DNA from: Chiloscyllium plagiosum
Taxonomy: Eukaryota
Assembly: GCF_004010195.1 (NCBI RefSeq)
Contig: NC_057715.1
Coordinates: 90,038,710 to 90,102,709, forward strand
Direction of reading: 5' to 3'
DNA length: 64,000 nucleotides
Part shown: positions 14,881-59,909 of the stretch, piece after piece
How positions within the stretch are numbered: position 1 is the stretch's first letter
How the letters are laid out: every line of letters begins with the position of its first letter
Notes under the pieces: model-generated
What the model was told of the DNA's origin: nothing
What the model saw: the letters and a program-made list of their open reading frames with translations, nothing else
The model's database searches: none
Position numbers and translations under genes: made by a program

Positions 14881-15619
14881 AACGTTCAGAGGAAAACATC
14901 CCCAACCTGTCCAATTTTCCAGAATTTATTATTGCACATGATTTACAATCAGTGATGGTCATTGGTGTTGATTAACGATGTTTTAATTGTAATGTTAACC
15001 CGTACAGTTTGACGAATTAGATTTAATTTCACTTTTGTTGTGATGGATAATGGTTGAACAATCACTATTTTATATCGAATTTTACGTTGTTGATTTTGAT
15101 TTTATACTTTGGAATTCTCGGGGGATTAGCTATGGCAAGACTCGAAGCAAAAACTTTATTGTTAAACTTTTTGATCATAGCACTGATTTGGGGGAGGATC
15201 GGTCTTCCTGCTGCTGAATGCATGTTCAGTTACCTGTAATGTCGACAGTAGATTGCGTGAAGTGTTGGAGGCCTGGGTCCAAGTCGATTGGCACCAAGAC
15301 CAGCCGACACTTCTAACACTCACTATGTCCAAAACGCTCGCCAATAAATAATCCGATGTGACTCACACTTGAAGTTGCACTATGCTACTTTGGACATCTA
15401 AATGCCCACCCTCACCACTCCGTCCATCACGCATTTTGCGTCCTATGATTCTGTGGAAAACGTTGCCAGCCACCTTTTGCACATTGTATCCGACCTCACA
15501 CTCCAAGCTTGGAGCGGGAAGGAGCCATTTGCAAAAGTTCCGGTGGAGGCGCCGTGAAGATTTAGGTAAGCAGATAACTATCACAGGAAAAGGACTCGGG
15601 TCTTATATTTTGGAGGAAA

Positions 15620-15960
15620 AAAAAACAAAGCCCGCGGGGGAAAGTCTCCCCCAGTTTTCAGGGCCGCGCCCTGCGGGGATCAGAATATTGAGCGCTCGAT
15701 TCTTTCCCAAAGATGCTACTTCGTTGTCGCCCTGGTAACACGCAGCCGCAGTACGCATGCGGAAGTCAGGTGGCAGACGGTAGCGTGCTGCGTTACCATG
15801 GCACCGGGGAGCCGAAGCTCACGTGCGCTGGTAACGGAAGGTGATTGGTGGGATTCAATAGACGCGGGCTGATTGAAAGTAATTTGCTACATGATGAGAA
15901 CAGAGAGAGCTACTCCGCGCCTGGAGACCAATTAGAGCCATTCCACTATATAGGCTGGCT
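15620..15960 (+). promoter_or_regulatory. CpG-rich CCNA1 promoter: RFX X-box-like sites, NRF1-like/ETS, E-box, MYB site, CCAAT boxes, CDE/CHR, TATA-like
   Basis: GTCGCCCTGGTAAC 15726-15739; ACGCATGCGG/CGGAAGT 15753-15766; GTTACCATGGCACC 15792-15805; CACGTG 15820; TAACGG 15832; ATTGG 15844; CGCGG 15863; TTGAA 15873; CCAAT ~15928; TATATA ~15947. Confidence 0.8.
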
Positions 15961-16084
15961 TTAGGCAAGCCCCAACTCATAAATGTGATCTGAGAGGCAA
16001 TTGCTCAGAGCTGAGCAGGCGACTGGGGAAAACTTGTGCAGTTTCTTTGTTGTTAGTGGTGTCAAATCTTTGTTTGTAGCTAAC

Positions 16085-16231
16085 ATGTACAGGAGCAATG
16101 CTGCTGTCAAGCGCAATGCTAATCAAGAAAATCAACATCTTGTCCCGCAGATGGGCCCAGTTAGCCAAAAGCAGAGGACCGTTTTAGGGGTGCTAAACGA
16201 GAACGACCAGCAGAGGCGTTCGCTTTCTCAG
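16085..16231 (+). CDS. CCNA1: CCNA1 coding exon 1 (MYRSN..., D-box [10 protein letters not shown])
   Basis: ATG at 16085 (AACATGT); RxxLxxxxN destruction box; donor CAG|GTAATT. Confidence 0.85.
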
Positions 16232-19200
16232 GTAATTTCTGTATTCACCAAACCCGTTATTCCTATATGTTTAACTATAGTTGGGGCTGTACTATCTAAA
16301 TATATCGTTCAGAGTCCATCTCGCCTCGCCCGAGCTCTCGAGTTATTTCAGTGAGTTTGCAAATTGCCTGACCTCGAATTTCTCTTCCCTCTTCTAACGT
16401 GTTTTGTTAGGTTTCTGCGAAAGTTTGTGGTACCGTTGCAGTGGGGACTGATAATGGGTTCACTTCGGCAAAGAGCTGCAGCACTCTCTCTGAATGTCCG
16501 GCTACTTTTGTGTCCAACCCGAACTTCCATATTTATATGGAGGATGAAGTCCAAGACGAAGTCGAAGTCTCTGAATGTAATCTAACCTCTGAACTCCAAT
16601 CTAAACTTGGAGAAGTTGGTAACGTCTCCAAACCAGCGGACGACTATTGTCTGTTCTTAGATCTGAGTGAAGGTAACAGCAAGACGCGAGCTAGAATTTC
16701 GTATCGCTTGATACGAACTCTGAATCTTTTATTGTGTTGTCTTCTAACCGTAGATGTTTACGTTACTGCATCCATTTTTTTTCGCTACTACCACGATTCG
16801 GTTTAACTTTACCATTCGAGCACATAGTCTTAATTCTACCTCTGCTTAGAACACGTATAAAGCAATTCTATTCCCTCAATTCAATTGGCTGTTGATGTTT
16901 TGTCACCTCTACAGTTTCGCCAATGTTAGTAGATTCATCCATGCGCTCGCAGCGTTCCCATGAAGATTCGCATGTACACGTAGATTACCTCGCTGTGGAA
17001 GGATATGCAGAAGACATTTATCGGTACCTCCGAGAAGCAGAAGTGAGTCACATAGCGGCACGACCTCTCTGGTTTAAGGAAATATAACCCCCCACTCACT
17101 GCCGACCCTTTAGCTGCCGCTGGGTTTGGTCACAACACTTGCTCTCTTGGGTGGCTCGTCCTATTAGATTCCCTACAGTGTGGAAACAGGCCCTTCGGCC
17201 CAACCAGTCCAGAGACCCACTTTCTCTCTAACTAATGCGCCTAACACTCTAGGCAATTTTTAGCATAGCCAATGCGCGTAACCTGCACATCTTTGCACTG
17301 TGGGAGGAAACCCACGCAGACACTGCGAGAATGTGCAAACTCCACAGACCGTTGCCCAAGGCTAGAATCGAATAAGGCAGCAGTGCTAATCACCGTGCCA
17401 CCCCTATTCTTGGGCTGTTTTATAACTCGCCTGCTGCAGAAACTACTTTAAACAAGATTAACCTCATCATTGCCGCAAAATCCGGAAACCTTTTGGCCGC
17501 TTCCCTAGAATGCAACAACTCTGACTGGGATAGTGGGAAAATGTTCTACTGGTTCTCTAATGAGTTTGTGAATTTTTTAAACTCGTTTGTTAAACTGCAA
17601 TCAAGATTAGAGTGGCGCTGGGAAAGCACAGCAGGTCAGCAGCATCCGAGGAGCAGGAAAATCGACGTTTCGGGCAAAAGTCCTTCAACAGGAATGCGGC
17701 TGGGAGCCTCTGGGCTGGGGCTGGGGAAGAGTGCAGTTGGAGGTGGGGTAAAAGTGATCGGGTGGAGCGGATAGGTGGGAAGGAAGATGGACAGTCATGA
17801 GGGTGGTGCTGAGCTGGGGAGGGGAACGAGGTGAAGCCCACACTGATGCCATGGGATTGAAGCAGAAGATGAGGTCTTTCTCAATGTCAGGGGGTTAGAG
17901 AGTAGCAATGGAGGAGGCCCAGGGCCTCCTTGTCCTCAGCAGAGTGGGAGGGGATGTTTAAATGTTTGGCCACTTGGCAGTGGGGTTGGTATGTGTGGGT
18001 GTCCCCAAGATGTTCTCTGAAACTCTGAGAAGGTGTCCTGTCTCCCCAATGTAGAGGAGACTGCATGGGGAGCAACGGATATAATAAATGACGTGGATGT
18101 GGAAGGCTCCTTTTGGGCCTGGGGGGGGTGGGCGCAAGTTTTGCAATTCCTGCGGTGGTAGGGGAGGGTGAATTACATCAACTCAGCTGCAGGTGGACTC
18201 AATTAAATATTCTGGGAGGATTGAATATTTCTTCAGTCTAGATTTCAAAGCATGGTCTTGGACCTCTTTTCGTATGCTAATCTGTATAGAGGCTCGCAGC
18301 TTTCTCTCTGCGGGATGATTTTTTTTCCACCATGACTTGTCACTTTTTTACAGTACAAATTTCCCATTCCAAACTGGGTGCTAACTCTAATGTTTTTCAG
18401 GAGAAATGCAGACCAAAATTTGGGTACATGAAGAAGCAGCCGGACATAACCCACAGTATGCGCTCCATTCTCGTAGACTGGCTGGTTGAAGTTGGCGAGG
18501 AGTACAACTTGCAAACTGAAACGTTGTACTTGGCTATAAACTACCTGGACAGATTCCTGTCATGTATGTCAGTCCTGAGAGGAAAGCTGCAACTGGTGGG
18601 CACAGCAGCTATGCTGGTAGCATCGTAAGTCTTTGTTTTGTTTTTGTTCGGCTCTTACATGTGGAACTCCAATCATAAAGGTTTTTTGTCTCTTGTGCAA
18701 AAATAAAACAATCGTGGTTCTAGGATCGCACAGTGATTTCGGGAATAGAGATTTTTTTAAATATACTGATGAACGATCAACTTGTACACTTTCCCTAGGA
18801 AATATGAAGAAATCTATCCCCCCGAAATAGATGAGTTTGTCTACATAACAGATGACACCTACACAAAAAAACAGCTCCTGCGCATGGAACATCTCTTGCT
18901 CAAGGTGTTGAGCTTTGACATGACCGTTCCAACGGTTAACCAGTTCCTAACGCAGTTTTTGAAGGAGGAAGGGATCGATGGACAAATGGGAAACCTAGCA
19001 ATGGTATGTATCTTATTCCTGGGTTTAACTCCCAGGCTCCTGCAGGATGGAGTTCGACTCGAACTGAGATTTGGAAAATTGTTAATAGGTAGCTGATCCG
19101 AATAAAGTCCGAGCCAAGGTTTTCGCACCTCAGGCAGTTCATCCTTGTGTTAACATCCATCTATTCAAAGTGCATTTTCCAGCTCTTGACTCAGCATTGT

Positions 19201-22200
19201 GTTCAATGGTGTTCACACGATTTAAATGTCATAATTGTTCTGTCTGTATCGTGTCCTTATTAGGTTGCTATCAACCATTCTAGAGAATTTCCTCCTCCTG
19301 ACTGCTAGCCATCCCACAAAGTAGTTGAATTGCTGCAGCTCAAGCCACATACTGGTGAAATCTCCTCTGCACCTTCTAGTGCATTCGCCTCCATCCATGG
19401 TTTGGCAACCAGAACTGCATGCAGTACCCAAGCTGTGGCTGAAAACACTTCATATAGCTCCATCATAAACTCTTTGCTTATGTATTTGACTAATAGACCA
19501 GTATCCCATATACCATCTTAACCACTTTTGTCAACTTGTCCTGTTATCTGTATGTAAATCCACAAATTGAGGTCTCCTTGTGGCAGTGATGATATCCTGC
19601 CTTTGGGCTAAAGCTTATGGTTCAAGTCCCACCTGCTCCAGAGATGGGTCTTTATATGGTTTTCTCTGGCTCATTGCCACAGGAGTAGGAAGCCAGCAGT
19701 AATTACTTGTAGCACTATAGCTATTGTAACCCCCTGCCATTGACAGATAAAATCATGTCTCTGGCCTTTGAACATTGTCCCCAAATGGTCTTCCTGACAC
19801 AGTGTCAAAGAGCTAATGAGAGGAGGCCACACTGGATCTGGTACATAGTGGTAGGTGAGCACTTTGGGGAGTGACCATAATTCAGTCACTTTTTTAGTTT
19901 AGCAATGGAAAGGGATAGGTATGTGCCACAGGGAAAGTGTTGTTGCTCTTCCCCATCAATTATAATGTGAGTAGGCAAGACTAAGGAGGCATAGAATTGT
20001 GTAGCAAAATGCAGGGGATGGGGACAATCCATGTGGAGCTGGTTTAAATAAGTGTCCTTGGTATGTCCCTGTCAGGCAGGGAGGAGATAAGGTAAGGGCA
20101 CCATGGTTTACTGAAGTTGTATCTAAAGTGGAAGAGGGAGGCTTATGACATTGAGATGAGATGGCTCGGGTGAGACATTAAGATTTAGACTATCTGGGAA
20201 AGATTTGGAGTTAAGAGCAAGGAGGGGATGTGAGCAGTCTTTAGCAGGTAAAATAAAGGATCATCCTAAAGTTTTCTATAGATATGTGAGGAATAAAAAG
20301 AGGAATAGGGCCAAAGACAGGTGGGAAGTTGTGTGTAAACCCTTTGGTGATCAGAGGTGCTAAATAAGTATTTCTTTTTTTCTCTCTACAATATTCAGCC
20401 TTGAGGGAAGACCGATATGAGCTATTAGGCTAGAAAGGATTGAGGTTAAGGAGGTGTTATCTAATTTTGAGAATTGATAAGTCCCCTGGACCAGATGGGA
20501 TTTATCCAAGGATTCTCTAGGAAGGTAGAGAGAAGATAGAGCCTTTATATTGGAGTCATCATTGTCTACAGGTTTAGTACTAGAAGATTGCAAATCTTGT
20601 GCCCTTGTTCAAGAATGGCAGGAGAGATGACCCAGGTAACTATATAGACAAATGAGCTTTGTGCCTTTTGTAAGAATTTTTTTTTTGGAAAGGATAAGAG
20701 GATTTATAATTGCTAGCAAGCAACAATTTCATTGGAGATAGTGAACACTGTTTTGTCAAGGGTGGGTCATGTCTCTTCACCCTCCTTTTTGGGAAGGTGG
20801 CCAAGCATGTGGATGAGGGTAGGGCAGTTGACATGGTGTATGTGGACTTCAGTAAAGCTTTTAAGGTTCCCACATGGGCCTTTGGAGAAAAAGCAGAGGC
20901 ATGGGATTAAGGGTGATTTTAGCAGTTTGGATTAGAAAATTGCCTTCTTGCAGAAAGCCACGAGTGGTGGTTGATGGAAGATATTCACTGAAGTCTAGTT
21001 ACTAGTAGTGTGCCACAAGGATCTGTTTTGGGACCATTGCTGTCTGTCATTTTTATAAATGACTTGGACACACCCACAGGTGGTTGGGTTAGTAAGCTTA
21101 TAGATGACACTAAAGTCAGAATGGTGACCATGTGGAAGAATATTGAATTGGGCTGAGGTGTTCTAAATGGAATTCAATGCAGATAAATGTGAGGTGATTC
21201 ACTTTGGGAAGAATAACATGAAAGCAGAATACTGAGTCAATGAAAGATTCTTGGTAGTGTGGATGTGCAGAAGGATCTTGGTGTCCATGTATATAAATTC
21301 CTGCAAGTTGTCACCTGGGTTGATAGTGCTGGTAAGGCATATGATGCATTGGGTTTTATTGGTAGAGGGTTTGAGTTCTGGAGCTGTGATGTCATGCTGC
21401 AACTATACAAAAGGCTAATGCAGCCGCACTTGGAATATTGTGTACAGTTCTGGTTGCACATTATAGGAAGGATGTGGAAGCATTGGAAAAGGTTGAGTAG
21501 ATTTACCATGATGTTACCTAGTCTGGAGGGAAGGCCTTTTAAGGAAAGGCTGAGGGACTTGGGTCTGTTCTCGTTTGGAGAAGGCTGAGGGGATTTAAGA
21601 GACAAGATGATCAGAGGATTAGATAGGATGGACAGTGAGTCTTTTCTTTCCCCCTTCGGATGATGACATTGGCTTTTACAAGGGGTGTAACCTCTAATTG
21701 AGGGGTGATAGATTTAAGACAGATGTCAAAGACTGGTTCTTTACTTGGTGGTAAGGGTGTGGAATGCCCTACCTGCCATGTAGTTAATTCAGCCACACTA
21801 GGGGCATTTAAGCATTCCTTGGATAAGCATTTGGATGGTGATAGTGTGGGGGGTGGACTTAGATTCGTTCACAGATTGGTGCAAAGAGCTGAAGAGTATG
21901 TTCTGTGCTGTATTCTGTATCCATCAATAACCAATCTTGACCCCCATGCTTGTTACCAATAATAGCCCAATACCAATAGGCTCAAAGTAAGACAAAATCT
22001 AGGCAAATGGACTGCTGCATTGAAGCTGAAATTTGCATGAGATCCCTTTAATGTCCAATCTTGTGATTTTTCCCAGAGCTATTTGAATGAACCAAGGGGT
22101 ATTTGTCTTGCTGATCCCAACCAAGATATTTTTGGACATGGCCCTAATAATAGCATAGCTTCTTTGCTTGGCAGACAGGTATGCTGGCTTTGAGATGCAA

Positions 22201-24262
22201 ATTACATTTGGGAATGACTTCTAATCACCACTTTGAATATTTCTGTTTATTGAATGTCCATGTTTGTAATTGAGCTATTGGAGAGGTGTTAGAATATTCT
22301 ACATGCATGTGTAGAAACCTTTTGTTAAACTTTATTTCATCTCTCCATTGTCCTGTCTCATGACACTGGCATGATGCAGTTACATAATTAAGAACTGAAC
22401 TAGTTCTGCAAATGTAACTAGGTCAGTATAAAAGCTTGTGATGTTCCAATGCTAAACCATTTCTAAGTCTACATTAGACTTGAGGCTCTTCTATACTTGT
22501 GAATACTTGGAGGTATGGTGTAGACTATGTAAAACTCCTTGTCGCTTTGTCTGCCTGGGAGAGAAGTGATTTGGACCTGACAGATCATCATCCTGGTCAT
22601 GTAATCAATTAAAAGAAACTAGGAAATCTGCAGGTCCAAAATTTGATCCTCCACTAGTGGATGGTTTGTGTCTTAATTTTTAACAGCCCATTGTCCTCTG
22701 ACAATCTGAAATGGACAGTGCACCTGCATTTAAGATCACTAAAGAATTTGGATTCAACATTGCCATTCATGGCATTGGTAATTGAGTGACTGTAAAGGGC
22801 AAATTAAACTCTGCATGGCTTTACTGCAACTTTATCTATAGTTAACATTGTGATTCTGAAACAAGAGAATGTTGTATTACTCCAAGTTATGGCAATTGCA
22901 CAACTCCAAAAATGCTTAACTAGAGCTTTGTGGTGGCTAATGTGTGATACAGAATAAAACATTATCAAGGTAAATATCCATGTCTTTTGTGGAAATATTG
23001 GAAAAGCTTGAAGGAAACATTAGCTATTTATGTAAAAGGATGAAAAGGCAAGTGGGCCTCTGATTGGATATTGATACTTGTGCAAGCCTAACCAGAGTAG
23101 TTGGATTTGGACAGTTCTGTCCAACTTAATTGGATGCCATTGTGGTGATATAAGTTGCTCAGTGACCTACTCTTACTTTGTACACCTTGAATTCAAAGTG
23201 AACACTAATTTGGTATTGAATGCAAGAGGCTAAAGGTTAAGATGGCACAAGTATGTTGCAGGTAAAGCTGGCTACCAGCAGTCATCTGGAGCCCAGTTAC
23301 AGAACTGTCATGCTAACTGGCTAATTTTTTTTCTCTATCAGTACATAGCTGAACTAAGTCTATTAGAAGCTGATGTATGTTTGAGGTATGCACCCTCTCT
23401 AATGGCAGCAGCTGCATATTGTTTGGCAAACTACACAATCAACAATACATTTTGGGTAAGTATTTTTGTGCCACTAAATCCCACTTTAAAATGGAAATGT
23501 ATAATGGGTGAATTGAAGGTTAATTTAAATAATAATGCAGTTTGTTTACTCTGCAGAAGTATCAACTTCCCATCACCTTTTAAAGCAGAAGGAAGACCAC
23601 ATACATTAAAAAAAGTCATAATTAACTGTCTAATCCCCAGCCCACTTGTATGACAAGCATACTACTCTACTACCATATACCTCTTGGACACCTAACAGGC
23701 CCTAATCCCATGAAGGATTCTTGTGTATGGTGACTCTTGCACCTGAAGTTAGTACTAAATCTTCCAAAGCGTTTTCTCTTCAGTTCTAATATTAAGGATA
23801 ATACCTGAAAGACCCCTCACTGCACTGATCTTCCAGCAATTGAATGTCACTTTTTTCTGCCTAAATGTATGACTTTTTAGTTGAGCTAAACAATTAAATT
23901 GTTGAATCTAGAATTGACTTTATTTATACTTTGTAAACTATAATTTGTAAGATAGTTACTGTCTATTTTGACAGCCTCCAGCACTTGCTACATTTACTGG
24001 ATACTCATTGGTTGATATTGTACCTTGTCTGCATGATATGCATAAGACCTTTCTCCAAGCCAAATTCCAGCCACAACAAGCCATTAAAGAAAAATACAGG
24101 AGCTCCAAGTAAGTTGGGTTTTTAGAGTCAACATAAGCTTTCTTGGAAAACTGCATTCATTAAAATGAAAATGCTTCTCCTAGGTATCTGAGAATTTCCC
24201 TCATTGAGCCTCCAGCAACCTTGCCTCTGCATGCACTGATTTCAAGTGCCATTCAAGGATGA
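16085..24262 (+). CDS. CCNA1: Cyclin A1, complete spliced CDS join(16085..16231,16411..16672,16915..17042,18401..18624,18799..19003,23342..23455,23975..24108,24184..24262), 430 aa
   Basis: All 7 introns are GT-AG with consistent phases (total 1293 nt). Cyclin box [16 protein letters not shown]...[56 protein letters not shown]...[11 protein letters not shown] is A1-type rather than A2-type. Synteny with SERTM1 and RFXAP. Confidence 0.95.
16411..16672 (+). CDS. CCNA1: CCNA1 coding exon 2
   Basis: Acceptor TTTTGTTAG; cyclin A motif FHIYMED; donor AAG|GTAAC, phase 1. Confidence 0.85.
16915..17042 (+). CDS. CCNA1: CCNA1 coding exon 3
   Basis: SPMLVDSS...[13 protein letters not shown]; acceptor CTCTACAG, donor GAA|GTGAGT. 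Confidence 0.92.
17163..17403 (-). mobile_element. HE1-like SINE in CCNA1 intron 3
   Basis: Same family as 12745-13070. Confidence 0.85.
17597..18165 (-). mobile_element. Penelope-like element fragment (GIY-YIG end plus pLTR with degenerate hammerhead) in CCNA1 intron 3
   Basis: [25 protein letters not shown] motif; CTGTTGA...GCCCGAAACGTC at 17691-17664. Confidence 0.8.
18401..18624 (+). CDS. CCNA1: CCNA1 coding exon 4 (cyclin box, MRAIL-like helix)
   Basis: [35 protein letters not shown]...; TTTTTCAG acceptor, TC|GTAAGT donor. Confidence 0.97.
18799..19003 (+). CDS. CCNA1: CCNA1 coding exon 5
   Basis: [45 protein letters not shown]; TTTCCCTAG acceptor, ATG|GTATGT donor. Confidence 0.97.
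19820..21920 (+). mobile_element. CR1 LINE ORF2 fragment in CCNA1 intron 5
   Basis: [34 protein letters not shown] motifs. Confidence 0.9.
23342..23455 (+). CDS. CCNA1: CCNA1 coding exon 6
   Basis: [38 protein letters not shown]; polypyrimidine-CAG acceptor, TGG|GTAAGT donor. Confidence 0.95.
23975..24108 (+). CDS. CCNA1: CCNA1 coding exon 7
   Basis: [45 protein letters not shown]; GACAG acceptor, AA|GTAAGT donor. Confidence 0.95.
24184..24262 (+). CDS. CCNA1: CCNA1 terminal coding exon
   Basis: [25 protein letters not shown]; 75-nt intron with CTTCTCCTAG acceptor; TGA 24260-24262. Confidence 0.9.
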
Positions 24263-24610
24263 AAATTGAATGCTCGTCAGAAAAGTAAAGCACTAACATT
24301 ATAAATGCCAACAAGGACTGAATTGGTCATAAACACTTGAAGGACTGCTGCTAATTTAACTCATAGCTGACTGCTATTGGACTGTGACCTTATTTGATAT
24401 GGTTTTAAGGTGCAATTTTTAAGCTACAGTATTAAGTTTTAATCTTTATTTATAAGGAATTCCAAATAGTTTTATAAACTCCAGTGGATAGTGATGGCTC
24501 AAATGCCATGTACTGCTTCATTAACCATTTTAAATGCTATTTGCATTTCTCACTGACTACAATGGAGGTGGGTTTGAGGAGTGAATGTTGTACTTTGCAT
24601 TTGGACAACC

Positions 24611-28470: not shown

Positions 28471-29989
28471 CTGTAGTTTCCTGAACATTTTCACCCTAAC
28501 ATGGTGTGGTTTGAGAAGCTTTTCTGTCTCTCTGCAATCCCAGCATTGTTCTGGGGCATAAGAAGCTTGAAAATTCCCTTCAAATAGTGGAGAGGGAATG
28601 AAGCTTTTTGAAGCACTGCATTCCCCATTTGATGGAGGCTATAGGTGTCTGAGATGTAAACCTTCATTAGTTTCTGCAGTTACACAGCCATTTGTTTCCA
28701 AAATGTTCAGGTCTTTTGTTAGAATATGCATACCATTGTGCACATAACTTCATGATATGTTGAGATATGACATTTGTTTTTATCTTTTAAAATATTATTG
28801 ATCCAGTTCAATTAAAATTTACAAATATGAAATACAAAAAGAAAACTCAGGTCTGACTGACCTTGTTAAACACTTCGAAGGAGGCATCCAAGATGGCGGC
28901 AACCCAGCAAGTCTGAGTCTACAGTGCTCCTCCCAAGACTTGGGCAAAGTGGGTCACCCGTCCCCACCATACTCACCAAATCATTTAAAATAGTTTACTT
29001 AATGTAATTAGTTGTTTAGTATTGAATTTAAACAATTTAATCTCCGGTAAAAATGACTAAAAGGAAGGGAGCCCGCAGCTCTTAGCAAGCAGGAACCCCT
29101 CCCCCACCCTTTCCTGTTGCAGAGGAGGCGTCCGCAGCTGCCCCGGGGGACTTACCTACGGTGGCGAGCCTTGTGGAAATAATGTCCAAACTCGTTGAGA
29201 AGATAGACGCTTTCATTGAAGAATCCCGAAGCTGATGGGACTCACTCTCGGCTGCGCTGCAAAAGCACGACCGCGACATCAAGGAAATTGAGCGCCGAGT
29301 TGGAGGGGCAAAGCTAAAGGCCACGACCTCCGAAACTACAGCACAATCGAGAATCGATGTCGTCGAAAAAATATTCGTTTGCTGGGCCTTCCCGAACAGG
29401 AAGAGGAAGGCCAGCTTACAAGGTTCCTTGAACAGTGGCTTCCACAGCTGTTAAATCTGGAGGCTGGATCAGGCCAGGTAAGGATGGAAAGGGCCTACCG
29501 GGTTGCCATATGCGGGCCCTGCTCGAACCAGTGCCCCCGCCCGGTCCTGTTCCAGCTGCAAAGCTGCAAGGAGAGGCAAATACTCTTAGAAGCCTCCAGA
29601 AATCTTGGAAAAGATCCCCAAGACATGACCTATAAAGGATACAAGATCATGTTATTCCAGGACGTTTCCCCAGCTCTGGTCCGAAAAAGGAAGGCGTTTG
29701 ATGAGACGAAGAAATGTTTAAGGGACTTAAATATTCAATACTCCTTGCGCTACCCAGCGACGCTATGCTTTAACCATGAAGGGTCCATGTATAACTTCAG
29801 ATCGCCGGAAAAGGCCAAGGAAGTTTTGGACTCTCTTAGATAAATTGTAAGAATTATTGATGTTGGTTTGCTTTCCCCCCACTCCGGTTTACATCCCCTT
29901 TTTTTTACATATTAATCCATTTTTTTAACCTTACTGTTTGATATTATCTTGGGGGGTGAGGAAAGGGATTTATTTATTTTTTTCTCTAC

Positions 29990-30295
29990 CGTGGGTGGCA
30001 CGGTGGCACAGTGGTTAGCACTGCTGCCTCAGCGCCAGAGACCCGGGTTCAGTTCCTGCCTCAGGCGACTCTGTGTGGAGTTTGCACATTCTCCCCGTGT
30101 CTGCGTGGGTTTCCTCCGGGTGCTCCGGTTTCCTCCCACAGTCCAAAAATGTGCAGGTTAGGCGAATTGGCCATGCTAAATTGCCCGTAGTGCTAGGTAA
30201 GGGGCAAATGTATGGGTGGGTTGCGCTTCGGCAGGTCGGTGTGGACTTGTTGGGCTGAAGGGCCTGTTTCCACACTGTAAAGTAATCTAATCTTA
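29990..30295 (+). mobile_element. HE1-like SINE nested in the L1 inter-ORF spacer
   Basis: GGCACGGTGGCACAGTGGTTAGCACTGC head, GGTTCAGTTCC B box, (CTAAT)n tail. Confidence 0.9.
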
Positions 30296-31476
30296 ACAAT
30301 TTTCTTCCCCCTTTTTTATAATTCTATATATACATAGGCCGGGGGATATAGTTAATGTTGGTGGGGGGAGGTGGTTACCTTATCCTATTTTATCTCTGTC
30401 TCTAGGAGCAGGGTTGTTTTCCCTTGTTATTTTGTATTATTATATTTAATTATTACTTGTTGAGGCTGTAATTTTATAGTTACATATGTTTATACATGGT
30501 ATTAACATTGCCAAATATATCCAGGTGTTCACTGTTAACTCTAGCTCTGTAGTATATTTGAATTTTCTTCATCCTATTGAGGAGCGCCTGGGTCAAGGGT
30601 GGGGCACTGGTTGGAAGAGGATACGATGGACTTTTGGAAAGGAAGTGATACCCCCCCGAGAACAAGGGGGAAAATCTCCAATTAAATAAGTTTTATATTT
30701 TTTAAATTTAGAAATAGTTTTTTATTATACCGTTGTGAGTGTATAAGAGAACCTTTATTTTTGTGAATTTTATATGCTTTATGCTTGGGATGTTCTGGAT
30801 AGGGTTTCCCCTCCCAAGGGGTCTCAGATTTACCCAGACGATTATGGTTGATCAGTTGGTTAAGTGGTGCACCTGGAATGTCAAGGGGAGTAATTCACCA
30901 GTCAAAAGGAAGAAAATATTATCAAACCTCAAGAAAGAAAGGGTTGATACAGGAGACACACTTATTGGATAAAGAACACTTGAAATTACGACATGGTGGA
31001 TTTGATCAGGCCTTTTTTCTTCTTTTAGCTCAAAAAGCAGGGGAATTGTTATTCTTATTCGGAAGAATTTCCCTTTCAAAATCCTAAATCAGATAAAAGA
31101 TAAATCTGGAAGATGTATTCTGATTAAAGCCCTTATAAATGGAGAGGAATATGGGATTTTAAATTTGTACTGCCCCCCGGCACATCCTTTTAAATTTATA
31201 ACGGAAGCCTTCTCAAAATTGATGGCTCTCGGTGCTCGTCATACAATTATAGGGGGAGATTTTAATTGTATTATGGATCCGGAAATAGATAGGGTTCCCA
31301 AGAGAACTGCAGGGGTATCTCCCAGACCTAGACAATTGGTGGATTTGAACAAAATTAGGACTAGTAGATGTATGGAGATGCCTTCATCCACAGGGCAGAG
31401 ATTTTTCTTTATACTCTTATCCACATAAATGTCATACCAGAATCGATATGTTTTTTGCCCCCTCGATTTTTTTAAA

Positions 31477-32125
31477 NNNNNNNNNNNNNNNNNNNNNNNN
31501 NNNNNNNNNNNNNNNNNNNNNNNNNNNNNNNNNNNNNNNNNNNNNNNNNNNNNNNNNNNNNNNNNNNNNNNNNNNNNNNNNNNNNNNNNNNNNNNNNNNN
31601 NNNNNNNNNNNNNNNNNNNNNNNNNNNNNNNNNNNNNNNNNNNNNNNNNNNNNNNNNNNNNNNNNNNNNNNNNNNNNNNNNNNNNNNNNNNNNNNNNNNN
31701 NNNNNNNNNNNNNNNNNNNNNNNNNNNNNNNNNNNNNNNNNNNNNNNNNNNNNNNNNNNNNNNNNNNNNNNNNNNNNNNNNNNNNNNNNNNNNNNNNNNN
31801 NNNNNNNNNNNNNNNNNNNNNNNNNNNNNNNNNNNNNNNNNNNNNNNNNNNNNNNNNNNNNNNNNNNNNNNNNNNNNNNNNNNNNNNNNNNNNNNNNNNN
31901 NNNNNNNNNNNNNNNNNNNNNNNNNNNNNNNNNNNNNNNNNNNNNNNNNNNNNNNNNNNNNNNNNNNNNNNNNNNNNNNNNNNNNNNNNNNNNNNNNNNN
32001 NNNNNNNNNNNNNNNNNNNNNNNNNNNNNNNNNNNNNNNNNNNNNNNNNNNNNNNNNNNNNNNNNNNNNNNNNNNNNNNNNNNNNNNNNNNNNNNNNNNN
32101 NNNNNNNNNNNNNNNNNNNNNNNNN
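31477..32125. other. Assembly gap (649 N) within L1 ORF2
   Basis: Run of N. Confidence 0.99.
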
Positions 32126-35100
32126 TAGATACTTAGCATTTCTTGCAAAGAAAAAGAAGGCCCCTCAAACTATCACGTCTATCAAGGAAAGTACGGGTAT
32201 TTTGACTCATGATCATAAAAGGATTAACGCAATCTTTAGAAAATTTTATTCTGATTTATATAAATTGCAGGATTGTGAAGACAGGACTAGGAGAATGCAA
32301 TCATTTTTTAAAAACCTGACCTTTCCGGACCTAACTCCGGAACAGGTATTGGTCTTGAATGTTCCCCTAACAATCCAAGAAATACTTGACGCAATCAGGC
32401 AACTTCAGAGCGGTAAGGCACCGGGCCCAGATGGCTTTCAAGCTGAATTCTATAAAGAATTTACAGGAATATTGGCTGGTCCACTTATGGACATGTATAA
32501 CTATTCATACAGTCAGGGCTGTCTCCCGCCTTCGCTGAAAGAGGTGAATATCTCTCTTATCCTTAAAAAAGGAAAGGACCCAGAAGATTGCGCGTCATAC
32601 AGACCAGTATCCTTGCTAAATGTAGATTTTTAAATCCTCTCTAAAACGTTAACATTGAGGCTAGAAAGGGTATTGCCACATATTATAAAGGAGGATCAGA
32701 TGGGATTTATTAAGGGCCGTAGATCATCCAATAATGTCAGAAGGGTTTTAAATGTGATTCAAGCCTGCCATCAGGGAAAGATACCAGGAGTAGTAGTCTC
32801 ATTAGACGTGGAAAAGGCATTCAACAGGGTTGAATGGTCAAATTTGTTTTATACATTGGAAAGGTTTGGCATTGGAAAGATGTTTACCAAATGGGTCTCA
32901 ACATTACATAGTAATCCCAAGGCAGTTGTGATTACCAATGGATTAGGCTCGGATAGCTTCAGTGTGGATAGGGGCTGCCGTCAGGGATGTCCTCTCTCGC
33001 CATTGCTATTTACGGTAATAATTGAACCACTAGCAGAAGCTATATGGGCTGACCCTAATATAATGGCCCCGAGGATTCATACAGGTAAACATAAAATTAC
33101 CCTTTATGCAGATGATGTTCTTCTATTCCTCAGTAATCCTCTGATGTCTGTGCCTCGCTTAATCCAAGTTATTAATACATTTAGTGTATTTTCAGGCTAC
33201 AAAATTAATTTCTCAAAATCGGAGGCTATGCCAATGGGTGGCCTTGCTAGTATATCCCACTTTCCCTTTCGGTGGTCCCTGGAGGGTTTCTAATATTTAA
33301 GCATTTTTATTACCATAGTATTTGGTCAGTTATACAAGGCTAACTTTGTGCATTTACTGGAAAGGATAAGGCAGGACCTCAGTGATGGGGAGACCTTCCA
33401 ATTTCCTGGCGAGGTAGAATAGCATTAATTAAAATGAATGTCCTGCCCCATCTTCTATACCTATGAATATGATTCCGGCGATGCTGCCGAGGCTAGCACT
33501 ACGTAAATGATATGGCTGGTTGGGTTCCTTTATCTGGAATCATAGACGGCCCCTCATTAAGCTGAAGAAGCTACAGCTTCCATAGGCAAAGGGAGGATTG
33601 GATTTCCCAGATTTTAGGAAATATTAGTTAAGTTCCCTATTAAGTTACATAGCCGATTGGGTCTTGCCTGACCCGCAATCAGTCTGGCTGGACATCGAGG
33701 CTTCTCAAGTAAAATGCCCACTTATTAACCTTTTATTTTCAGACAAGAGGAAAATCATTACGGACCACTGTAAAAACCCTATCATAGTAAACACAATTAA
33801 AGTTTGGAATATAATGCGGCAAAATGAGGGCAACTCACATAAAACATTTCCCTATGCTCCGATTTCAACCGGGGTTTACAGATGCCACTTTCAAACTCTG
33901 GAGGTCCAGGGGTATCTCATGTTTAGGGGATCTGTTTAAAGAAGGGGTCTTGATGTCTTTTGAACAGCTGCATCAGAAATTTGGATTACCTAATGGAGAC
34001 ATCTTTCGATACTTCCAAATTCGAGATTACATACAGAAGAAGACTACGTTATACGATAGTCTTTATAAATCCGATAGAGAAGGTAGAGTGCTATGGCCAA
34101 TGGGGGTATCTTCCGTCAGTACTATTTATCATTTATTAAATGGTGAGGTATCGGGAGATATGGACAATCTGCTTAAAACATGGGATCAGGATTTGGGACT
34201 AGAAATCTATATAGAAACGTGGAATGATACTTGGGAAAACACCAGAAGAATCATTATCTGCAACAGAACTCAGGCTATTCAGCTGAAGGTACTTCATGGG
34301 GCCCATATAGCACCGGATCGATTGGCAAAATTTAAAGCAGGAGCATCTCCAATGTGTCCCAAATGTAAAATAGAGGTGGGCACTCTTGTACATTGCTTAT
34401 GGACCTGTCATAAGATCCGTAGATATTGGACTAAAGTAGCAAGTGCTCTGACAGAAATCTTAGGAACGGAAATTAGAGTGGACCCTGTATCTCTCCTGTT
34501 GGGCTTTTCGAACTTACCCTCCATGAATATGCACTAGAAGAGATTATTTTCTATTCTCTCTTTCTGTGCAAGGAAAATATTTTGGTAAACTGGGTAGCTG
34601 AGGGCCCCCCTGGACTTTCAAATTGGCACAGATTAATTATAGAATGTATTCCCCTTGACTTCCTTACAAATATGGTGCACCAAAAGACCGCCTTATTCCA
34701 TAAAATATGGTAGCCCTTCTTGAATTATATAAATACGGATATTTCGGCCATCCTAACAAGGGCTTTTATTTAACTGAGATGGCGACCCTGGCTGGTCTTG
34801 GGCCCCTTGGGAGTGGAATCCCGCACGAATACGGGTTTTGTTACATTTGATGTTAATACATTCCGAGCATGTATCTCACTACCCAATTTCTGTGTTATCC
34901 ATTGTTTTTTTTCTCTTATTTGAATAATGTAAGAGACTTAATTATACACTCTGGTTAGTTGTAGGTTAGATTAGTTGAGTTTTGTTTTTTCTTCTCTCGG
35001 AATTTTTCTTTTGTTAAGTTTTGATTATTATTTAAGATTTAATTGTATATCAATGTTTATACTTGGGGTTTTTTAATTTTGTAAACTTGTTGGTTAGTTG

Positions 35101-37902: not shown

Positions 37903-38250
37903 TTAGCTTGCGAAAGCTGAGAAATGAGATGGCCTTAATGAAAGGCTATATACTTCCAGATTGGTGCTAGAACTCCCTGTGTTGCTTGTGCATTTGGGAC
38001 AGGAGGAACTAGAACCAACAACATTCTTAAGCTTCTGAAATGTAATTAACAGAAATAAAATCAAAAAATCAATAAAATCCAAAAAGGCTAGCAAGCTTAG
38101 GAAAATCGACAGTTAAACAAAGATATTAGATAAGTTGATGGTAGATGATGAATCCGTGACATAATTGATGGGTGTTGGGTAGGATTCATCTATTGTTTGA
38201 TTTCTAGAGTTTCCAATTAGTGATTCAGTTGCTTTCTCAGCCGTAGCCAT
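37903..38250 (-). pseudogene. SERTM1: SERTM1 (serine-rich and transmembrane domain-containing 1) orthologue, apparently disrupted
   Basis: MATAEKATES...SSSTINLSNIFV*LSIFLSLLAFL(DFIDFL)ILFLLITFQKLKNVVGSSSSCPKCTSNTGSSSTNLEVYSLSLRPSHFSAFAS matches the SERTM1 pattern LSNVYIYVSIFLSLLAFL...LQRLKNIISSSSS...GSSFTNLEV. In-frame TAA at 38115-38113. AATAAA on the minus strand at 37863-37858. Syntenic position. Confidence 0.85.
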
Positions 38251-59029: not shown

Positions 59030-59247
59030 TCTCCATTACCAAGATGGCCGCCACCCACGGTCGGGCGAATACCACGTGATCCCAATAACACCGTAGCTGA
59101 TTGGTGGGTACAGGAGGGGGGCGGGGAGTAACTCTGACATTGCACGGTGGTGTGCGCGACGAGACGTCTGGGCATGCGCAGTAATGTGCAGAGGCTGGGC
59201 CTCCGTGGGGGTTGTTTACAGTCGGAGGTCGCGGCGTGTGATTCGGG
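59030..59247 (+). promoter_or_regulatory. RFXAP CpG-island housekeeping-type promoter
   Basis: YY1 AAGATGGCCGCC 59041; E-box CACGTG 59073; ATTGG 59100; GC box GGGGCGGGG ~59118; NRF1 GCATGCGCA 59172. Confidence 0.8.
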
Positions 59248-59796
59248 ATGAGTGAGGGGCAAAGCGAGCGCGATCGGAGCAGCCAGGGTGCTGTTGCTAC
59301 CAGCACCACCACGCCGACGACGGGCGTGTCCCCTCACAGCGCCAGCCCCCAGGAGGTGACCACGGTGGTTATCGCCGCGGCTCTCTTCGAAAGTAGTCAG
59401 GCAAGAGGAGCAGAGGAAGCCGTGCGGGCTCCTGATACTACAGAGAACTCCAGGCAGGCTAACGGGGAGGAGGAGGAGGATGAGGAAGAAGGAGAAGAAG
59501 AGGACGATGATGATGATGAGGAGGAGGAAGAAGAAGAGGAATTGGAGGAGTTAGAAGATGAAGAGGAAGATGAGGAAGATGATGATGATGAGGAGGAGGA
59601 TGAAGAGGAGGAAGAAAGCGGCCACAGCGAGACGGTGATCAGGAAATGTGTGTACCAGGATTGTACTGAAACCACCAACCTGGTGGCTAAACCTAGGAAG
59701 CCTTGGATGTGCAAAAAGCACCGCAACAAAACTTACAAGGACAAATACAAGAAGAAGAAGAGCGTTCAGGCTATGGTCAGCAGGAACAAAACTTAT
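59248..59796 (+). CDS. RFXAP: RFXAP coding exon 1 (acidic tract, basic KPWMCKKHRNK..KDKYKKKK region); 3' boundary uncertain (59775 or 59796)
   Basis: CVYQDCTETTNLVAKPRKPWMCKKHRNKTYKDKYKKKKSVQAM matches RFXAP; ATG in GGGATGA context inside a CpG island. Confidence 0.92.
59467..59617 (+). repeat. GAG/GAA/GAT low-complexity tract encoding ~50 Glu/Asp residues in RFXAP
   Basis: Directly visible cryptic trinucleotide repeat. Confidence 0.9.
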
Positions 59797-59909
59797 ATGA
59801 GCATAAACTACATATGCTGTGCAAACAGTTATTTTTGGGTTTTATTTCCACTCTGATTCTTTCTTGAAAGGTTACTGGGTTTCTTGCTGAAGTGCAGACC
59901 TTTGACCAT

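Follow-up and report, generated by a model that had tools for sequence, protein, structure and literature searches.

The CCNA1 locus

The window analysed here is the whole stretch of 64,000 nucleotides from contig NC_057715.1 of Chiloscyllium plagiosum (positions 90,038,710 to 90,102,709 of the forward strand). It contains a cyclin A gene with eight coding exons and a CpG-rich promoter region, followed downstream by SERTM1- and RFXAP-family frames (Table 1). The 430-residue product is identical to the database protein P0129, annotated as cyclin-A1 isoform X3 of the same species. A search of the shark genome resulted in seven matches, among them two cyclin A loci, one in the window and one on contig C32. 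The best 120 matches of the window protein are named cyclin A1, save a few unnamed or generically named rows.

We calculated a quick IQ-TREE phylogeny for 36 rows from 254 proteins (SH-aLRT support only, midpoint root, no outgroup, database labels). In this tree the window gene groups with the A1 proteins of sharks, ray-finned fishes, amphibians, reptiles and mammals, with an SH-aLRT value of 100 for the A1/A2 split, and the C32 gene lies on the A2 side. None of the A2-side proteins of the tree occurs among the best 120 matches of the window protein. SPART-family exons are located approximately 83 kb upstream of CCNA1. Together with the two downstream frames they correspond to SPART, SERTM1 and RFXAP, which we take to be the usual neighbours of CCNA1 (presumed order); the SPART MIT exon was not located. 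The first-pass annotation had named the gene CCNA1 and had considered that a phylogeny might move it to the A2 clade. It fell with A1 instead, and both tree and neighbours bear out the assignment.

Table 1. Features of the window at and around shark CCNA1.
Feature	Position	Strand	Basis or remark
CpG-rich CCNA1 promoter region	15401..16100	.	CpG o/e 0.76-1.02
RFX X-box consensus match, 0 mismatches	15726..15739	+	presumed consensus
Overlapping NRF1-like and ETS-like words	15754..15765	+	presumed consensus
Palindromic X-box-like site, 1 mismatch	15792..15805	.	presumed consensus; centre 46 bases before ATTGG
CACGTG, E-box-like	15820..15825	+	ACGT core 23 bases before ATTGG
MYB-like word	15832-37	+	presumed consensus
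Second ETS word	15835-40	+	presumed consensus
Inverted CCAAT box (ATTGG), predicted NF-Y site	15844..15848	+	same offset in shark and human CCNA2
TTCAATAG arm, upstream half of dyad	15854..15861	+	conserved in human CCNA2, phastCons 1.000
CDE (CGCGGG), predicted E2F4/DP contact	15863..15868	+	CDE definition
CHR-position hexamer ATTGAA	15872..15877	+	TTGAA 4 bases after CDE
Predicted 5'-UTR intron, 201 bases	15879..16079	+	donor GT, acceptor AG
CCNA1 coding region, 8 exons, 430 aa	16085..24264	+	tree and protein identity
CCNA1 exons 1-4	16085-16231, 16411-16672, 16915-17042, 18401-18624	+	coding
CCNA1 exons 5-8	18799-19003, 23342-23455, 23975-24108, 24184-24264	+	coding
SERTM1-family frame, synteny marker	37903..38112	-	Pfam SRTM1, E 2.8e-16
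RFXAP-family frame, synteny marker	59242..59856	+	Pfam RFXA_RFXANK_bdg, E 1.3e-18

The promoter contains a module of four blocks at 15844-15877, which reads ATTGG, a 5-base spacer, TTCAATAG, one base, CGCGGG, a 4-base spacer and TTGAA. Blocks and spacers were re-read in the window and agree with the first-pass annotation. The start codon (ATG 16085) lies 207 bases downstream of the module. The module is covered by contigs of the DNA runs X1 and X3, both from a single study that may be related to the source, and no difference is listed inside it. The perfect and the one-mismatch X-box are found 39-118 bases upstream of the module. Across the window, X-box matches are not enriched (their count was reached in 8 of 100 shuffles), and shark CCNA2 likewise has one match to the X-box consensus. 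No GC-box word occurs within -300/+230 of the CDE. The next CpG-rich region upstream is approximately 61 kb away, beside the SPART-family exons. A head-to-head promoter common to CCNA1 and SPART is unlikely, because the SPART-family exons lie about 83 kb upstream beside that CpG-rich region of their own.

Several features were observed elsewhere in the locus and the genome. The isoforms P0004 and P0122 of the same species carry a 34-residue insert in the cyclin fold, between exons 5 and 6 (19004-23341), which is probably an exonised piece of the intron. Several shark CCNA1 models start at the second methionine (MGPVSQ) in the region 16085-16151; splicing to the AG at 16089-90 as an alternative acceptor could bypass the first ATG and shorten the protein by 22 residues. 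An element with ORF1-, endonuclease- and reverse-transcriptase-like frames, presumably LINE-like, occupies 29236-34713, with an assembly gap near 31475-32130. In the CpG-rich region of RFXAP (59100-59400), a GC-box-like run comes after an ATTGG; at 59376, inside the open frame, there is a CGCGG...TTCGAA word. Two similar cyclin-box exons (G000:C2:29727931 and 29749158) lie 21 kb apart on one strand and are possibly a tandem pair of cyclin genes.

A module common to both cyclin A genes

The first-pass annotation had set the module beside a human CCNA2 string. We compared this string with the promoter record uc003iec.4 in Dataset D2 (PMC4176359) and found it correct in every letter. Shark CCNA1 and human CCNA2 are identical in 24/24 block letters and 3/3 spacer lengths, just as the first-pass annotation had claimed. 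By eye, 26 of all 34 letters agree between these two promoters, and 27/34 between shark and human CCNA2. For the blocks of human CCNA2, the human table (Table S3) gives phastCons values of 1.000 at +2/+3, +12 and +21 from the annotated start, and the DREAM entry is 1111. The annotated start site is located directly before the TTTCAAT block.

The second shark gene lies on a 45-Mb contig (G000:C32:3696202-3727423), where its only annotation is 'cyclin-A2-like'. The gene is faced by an exon of RNase-PH type (EXOSC9-like); tree and neighbour support its identity as the true CCNA2. Its module is found at G000:C32:3727423-3727390 on the minus strand, approximately 400 bases before the start codon, with identical spacing. 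ATTGG is located 19 bases upstream of the CDE in both shark genes. An ACGT core precedes ATTGG by 23 bases in shark CCNA1, 24 bases in shark CCNA2 and, judged by eye, 23 bases in human CCNA2, where it belongs to the CRE. From these positions the CACGTG word, or its ACGT core, is a possible fifth inherited block. The letter following the CDE is C in shark CCNA1 and A in shark and human CCNA2.

The short length of the blocks raises the question of chance. CCAAT, CDE and CHR words are short and common, and the likeness could have arisen by chance, by convergence of such cell-cycle words or by later copying between the paralogues. A comparison of the 1-kb regions upstream of the two shark genes yielded the module as the best ungapped 34-mer (26/34), while the maxima in the controls were 24 (300 dinucleotide shuffles) and 25 (60 real 1-kb segments). 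We then scored the 20-letter pattern from the human table. The module has 17/20 letters, the top score of all window positions on both strands (next 16), and the maximum in 1000 shuffles of the CCNA1 promoter was 15. The 17-letter core, all letters and offsets of which are also present in the human table, has exactly two matches in the 3.56-Gb shark genome, one per cyclin A gene; the reversed control has none. In a metagenome collection the same core has at least 120 matches, which speaks for chance as a source of such words. Of these loci 80 were checked: none has a full ATTGG and none a cyclin nearby, so we take them to be chance matches. The 23-letter module pattern has no match in the metagenome contigs. 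The general CDE/CHR definition, moreover, does not include the TTCAAT arm or the spacers of 5 bases and 1 base. As for copying, CCNA1 and CCNA2 are on different contigs. Seven 30-base blocks flanking the module agree in only 5-11 of 30 positions between the two shark promoters, and the coding regions are identical at 29 of 86 four-fold sites; this divergence argues against recent copying. Taken together, we consider chance, convergence or copying highly improbable.

The element is thus common to two genes that are listed as vertebrate 2R paralogues (A1 and A2; PMC3238295, in the available part of that source). It lies at the same position in both and agrees beyond chance, with diverged flanks. 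Because the CCNA2 gene of the same genome has the module with equal spacing while flanks and four-fold sites have diverged, the module is very likely older than the A1/A2 duplication, and this part of the first-pass annotation is well supported. Inheritance under selection would be the plain reading of the likeness. The module is likely to represent the core promoter of a single ancestral vertebrate cyclin A gene that was kept by selection in both duplicates. Sharks and bony vertebrates separated about 450 million years ago.

The CDE is flanked by two complementary arms. The first six letters of TTCAATAG (TTCAAT) are the exact reverse complement of ATTGAA, which places the CDE within a 6-bp dyad. 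Judged from the human table, the arm upstream of the CDE shows full conservation in mammalian CCNA2. It may be an initiator, since the start of human CCNA2 is located there, or a second contact for MuvB. We also considered that the dyad was kept as an RNA hairpin in the 5' UTR, as the arms are exact reverse complements in the window and are likely to lie inside exon 1. The fold is no better than that of shuffled sequences (z-scores +1.03 for CCNA1 and -0.48 for CCNA2), and we rejected the hairpin, to which we assign a negligible probability.

The predicted first exon and CCNA1 models of other vertebrates

The donor GT of the predicted 5'-UTR intron follows TTGAA after one base, and its acceptor AG is positioned six bases before the ATG. 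This acceptor (16079) is used by the Hemiscyllium model P0124. The donor (15879) is at the same place as the junction inferred from gecko and bilby models. Models of Hemiscyllium and C. punctatum match the 15713 frame of the window in 38/39 and 41/42 residues; their upstream exon ends at 15830 or 15840, which places the module in intron 1. As to whether the CHR lies close to the start site, the models point in different directions: those of amniotes end exon 1 at the module, and the two from relatives put it in an intron. In the 2-6/100 of the raw reads examined from the RNA runs X5, X6 and X7 (no control gene), the CCNA1 exons have no coverage, which carries no weight as to expression or start site. 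A second CCAAT (15928-32) and a TATA-like word (15947-52) are found inside the predicted first intron and could mark a downstream start. The models of whale shark, zebra shark and skate also take in codons immediately before the acceptor.

Is the module present in CCNA1 beyond sharks? We examined whether N-terminal extensions of gene models back-translate to it, by codon compatibility with generous scoring and with exact spacing demanded. The sample comprised 433 distinct cyclin A proteins with 35,451 N-terminal residues. Six of them fit 23 of the 24 block letters, one fits 22 and two fit 21; among 4330 shuffles 23 was reached in none, 22 in one and 21 in one. The 23/24 fits are from two geckos (P0168, P0175) and three marsupial species (P0341, P0353, P0350, P0351), followed by the bilby (P0346, 22/24) and a turtle (P0267, 21/24). 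All module-compatible proteins are labelled cyclin A1. The Eublepharis model P0164 (21/24) was set aside as a chance fit, because 21 is also reached under the null and the Paroedura homologue of this exon is incompatible. Proteins that do not fit are uninformative, since most have no N-terminal extension.

In the marsupial frame the sequence is DWPDSTDAGGLKVI, at the place of DWWDSIDAG*LKVI in the window. Of 42 letters compared with the marsupial read-through models, 38 fit the window and 32 the CCNA2 span. The evidence from amniotes comes from two different reading frames, both of which give the same letters, and in the spliced models the second exon is joined directly after the TTGAA codons. 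Provided that TTGAA is kept, the hexamer implied by the gecko models is CTTGAA, one of the validated CHRs. In a region search, the gecko N-terminus matched the two geckos only. Six models of hystricomorph rodents have a D-W pair 12 residues after M-E-A, as in marsupials, followed by a remnant that covers part of the module with a one-base shift. An X-box-like centre, inferred for amniote CCNA1 models, lies 37-45 bases before ATTGG; X-box compatibility in amniote proteins is near the null. X-box-like residues were also seen upstream in bird cyclin A1 models (P0289, P0294, P0354, P0356, P0360), whose module trace is weak (17-18/24, within the null); birds may have altered the module.

Judged from these protein models, the module would also be present in CCNA1 of geckos, marsupials and a turtle, where it would close a first non-coding exon. 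This evidence is codon compatibility in a few clades, and the gene models were possibly extended in silico. The first-pass annotation had regarded the module as a special retention of elasmobranchs. That part found no support, in contrast to the CCNA1 identity, the human promoter string and the origin before the duplication: the gecko, marsupial and turtle models are compatible with the module, and the human cyclin A1 promoter had already been stated in print to have CDE/CHR sites (PMC1312313, citing Muller 1999). Since the module is likely common with amniotes, its presence gives sharks no special status.

The module in CCNA1 is a real and ancient element; CDE/CHR words had been mentioned before in the mammalian cyclin A1 promoter. 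Lele and Wolgemuth (2004) reportedly noted CDE, CHR and CCAAT elements in mouse, rat and human. In the literature covered, mostly outside subscription journals, we found no paper on a module common to CCNA1 and CCNA2 nor on shark ccna1, and the supplements of PMC4994865 contain no CCNA row.

The CHR variant, possible regulation and comparison with known systems

The CHR comprises six letters, a point not considered in the first-pass annotation, and reads ATTGAA in shark CCNA1 versus CTTGAA in CCNA2. ATTGAA is one letter away from both TTTGAA and CTTGAA, and it is absent from the ten validated CHRs given in the available part of PMC4705690. No validated hexamer occurs from -300 to +209 of the shark CCNA1 CDE. 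In the same screen 18 single-letter variants were assayed, and ATTGAA is not named among the better binders in the part of the paper available; according to its authors, a variant that fails in one promoter may work elsewhere. A CDE/CHR tandem is defined by a GC-rich CDE and a 4-base spacer (PMC3287175, PMC4176359, both in part). With respect to the layout of DREAM targets, shark CCNA1 has a CDE four bases before the CHR position and an upstream CCAAT box, and its CHR is not one of the ten validated hexamers. On present sequence evidence, the module resembles that of CCNA2 in layout, with an unvalidated CHR variant and with one defining DREAM feature missing.

One reading, following the first-pass annotation, takes the module for a working DREAM/MMB site. 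Under it, shark CCNA1 would have remained a periodic S-G2/M cyclin whose role in ordinary dividing cells overlaps with that of CCNA2. The complete CCAAT-CDE-CHR layout with the tandem-defining 4-base spacer would be in line with this, as would the 17/20 retained human-defined letters, the latitude of CHR variants between promoters (PMC4705690, in part) and the validated hexamer implied for geckos. We nevertheless consider it unlikely. The hexamer is outside the validated ten and is not among the better-binding variants named in the available text, and neither CCNA2 gene has the same letter after the CDE. For human CCNA1, furthermore, the DREAM entry is 0000, a cell-cycle peak is absent and the 200 bases around one start contain no conserved CHR; a supplement row shows none that is conserved and validated up to 1000 bases from the listed start, and the gene was not DREAM-bound in two screens. 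A module that is likely common with amniotes is also no mark of a shark specialty.

Alternatively, the ancestral module in CCNA1 could have become no more than a basal core promoter (NF-Y and initiator) and the end of exon 1, with a decayed CHR and loss of MuvB binding. The start of human CCNA2 is annotated at the TTTCAAT block, the splice donor lies one base past TTGAA in the shark and likely in amniotes, and the differing CHR letter is a defining one. A donor, however, constrains only the last few letters of an exon. It leaves CGCGGG, TTGA and the exact 1- and 4-base spacers in both paralogues unexplained, and CCNA2 keeps the same letters without a donor. We therefore regard this alternative as improbable.

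Based on the sequence comparisons we propose the following reading, which we hold to be moderately probable: an ancestral cyclin A core promoter was kept in both duplicates and was re-used in CCNA1 for the meiotic and the multiciliated-cell programmes. By analogy with CCNA2, NF-Y would bind the CCAAT box and E2F4/DP the CDE. A CXC subunit of MuvB would, again by analogy, bind the TTGAA arm or arms of CCNA1, more weakly than in CCNA2; we propose that the A at position 1 of the CHR is the cause. In most somatic cells this weak CDE/CHR would add little activation. In multiciliated cells MCIDAS-E2F4 together with RFX would occupy the DNA of the module and turn CCNA1 on. In spermatocytes A-MYB-MuvB with TESMIN would occupy the same DNA, with the same outcome.

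Published observations in the accessible parts of several papers are consistent with such a re-use. Spermatocytes and multiciliated cells express cyclin A1 (PMC7198627). E2F4 activates the human CCNA1 promoter only together with MCIDAS, and this promoter also responds to FOXJ1 and MYB; the responsive site in the reporter paper is not mapped to the module (PMC6145839). In Xenopus, ccna1 is the exception among cell-cycle genes in that it depends on Multicilin-E2f4 (PMC4083089), and a testis MuvB with MTL5/TESMIN and A-MYB exists (PMC8386835). Repression of mouse Ccna1, on the other hand, was mapped to Sp1 and GATA1 sites, and the available text of that paper makes no mention of CCAAT or CDE (PMC3480434).

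In the shark genome, a Geminin-family exon lies 21 kb from a cyclin-related gene (G000:C1:68740269-68761810; loci L153 and L007). We take the exon to be MCIDAS-like and its neighbour to be cyclin-O-like, and a multiciliation gene cluster appears to be present in this shark. A first search for CXC domains in the genome gave nothing at E 0.001; two CXC-domain loci, candidates for LIN54 or TESMIN, were found as short exons with E 0.001-0.02. An E2F-type site and X-box words are present in the shark CCNA1 promoter and the MCIDAS-like exon in the genome, although the promoter words are not specific. The two X-box-like sites upstream of the module speak for the re-use reading; the lack of X-box enrichment in the window, the match in shark CCNA2 and the near-null compatibility in proteins speak against it.

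A further-reaching version, which we regard as possible but speculative, is that cyclin A1, from sharks to marsupials, has always remained within the E2F4/MuvB circuit. The programmes would swap activators (A-MYB-TESMIN-MuvB, MCIDAS-E2F4, RFX) on the same core promoter at the end of exon 1, and the TTCAA...TTGAA dyad would be a two-armed MuvB site. If this is true, ATTGAA would be an eleventh functional CHR, and the conserved arm of CCNA2 would be explained.

The base-exact spacing in two paralogues, in place since before the split of sharks and bony vertebrates, makes the ancestral vertebrate cyclin A promoter directly visible. How cyclin A1 became a meiotic and multiciliated cyclin while A2 stayed mitotic is reduced to a test of three or four letters. 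The comparison further draws attention to a conserved arm in the well-studied CCNA2 promoter for which the literature examined names no binding factor. It involves no new chemistry and no new kind of system.

The mammalian CCNA1 promoter is described as GC-box/Sp1-, GATA1-, MYB- and MCIDAS-E2F4-responsive. It belongs to the orthologous gene, the module or a remnant of it is seen in marsupial and rodent models, and CDE/CHR sites are stated for the human promoter in the available part of PMC1312313. On the side of differences, two screens found neither DREAM binding nor a conserved validated CHR for human CCNA1, and the shark promoter has no GC-box word within -300/+230 of the CDE. Like the targets of MCIDAS-E2F4/5-DP1, RFX and A-MYB/TESMIN-MuvB, the shark promoter has an E2F-like GC core, CHR-like arms and X-box-like sites. 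In human cells and in the frog, the ciliated-cell programme is known to target the CCNA1 orthologue. The ciliated-cell and spermatocyte papers, as far as available, do not map the response to this module.

With shark CCNA2 the promoter has in common 26/34 letters, the spacing, a position a few hundred bases before the ATG and the CpG-rich region. Shark CCNA2 differs in that it keeps 20/20 human-defined letters (CCNA1, 17/20), including CTTGAAC and GCGGGA, and in its GC-box-like and CRE-like words. The core promoter of human CCNA2 is a DREAM, MMB and FOXM1-MuvB target (PMC4176359, PMC4705690, in part). Unlike it, shark CCNA1 has ATTGAA instead of CTTGAA, C and not A after the CDE, an E-box-like CACGTG in place of the full CRE, X-box-like sites upstream and a predicted splice donor immediately behind the CHR. 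Both promoters agree in all 24 block letters, in the three spacers and in the ACGT core 23 bases upstream.
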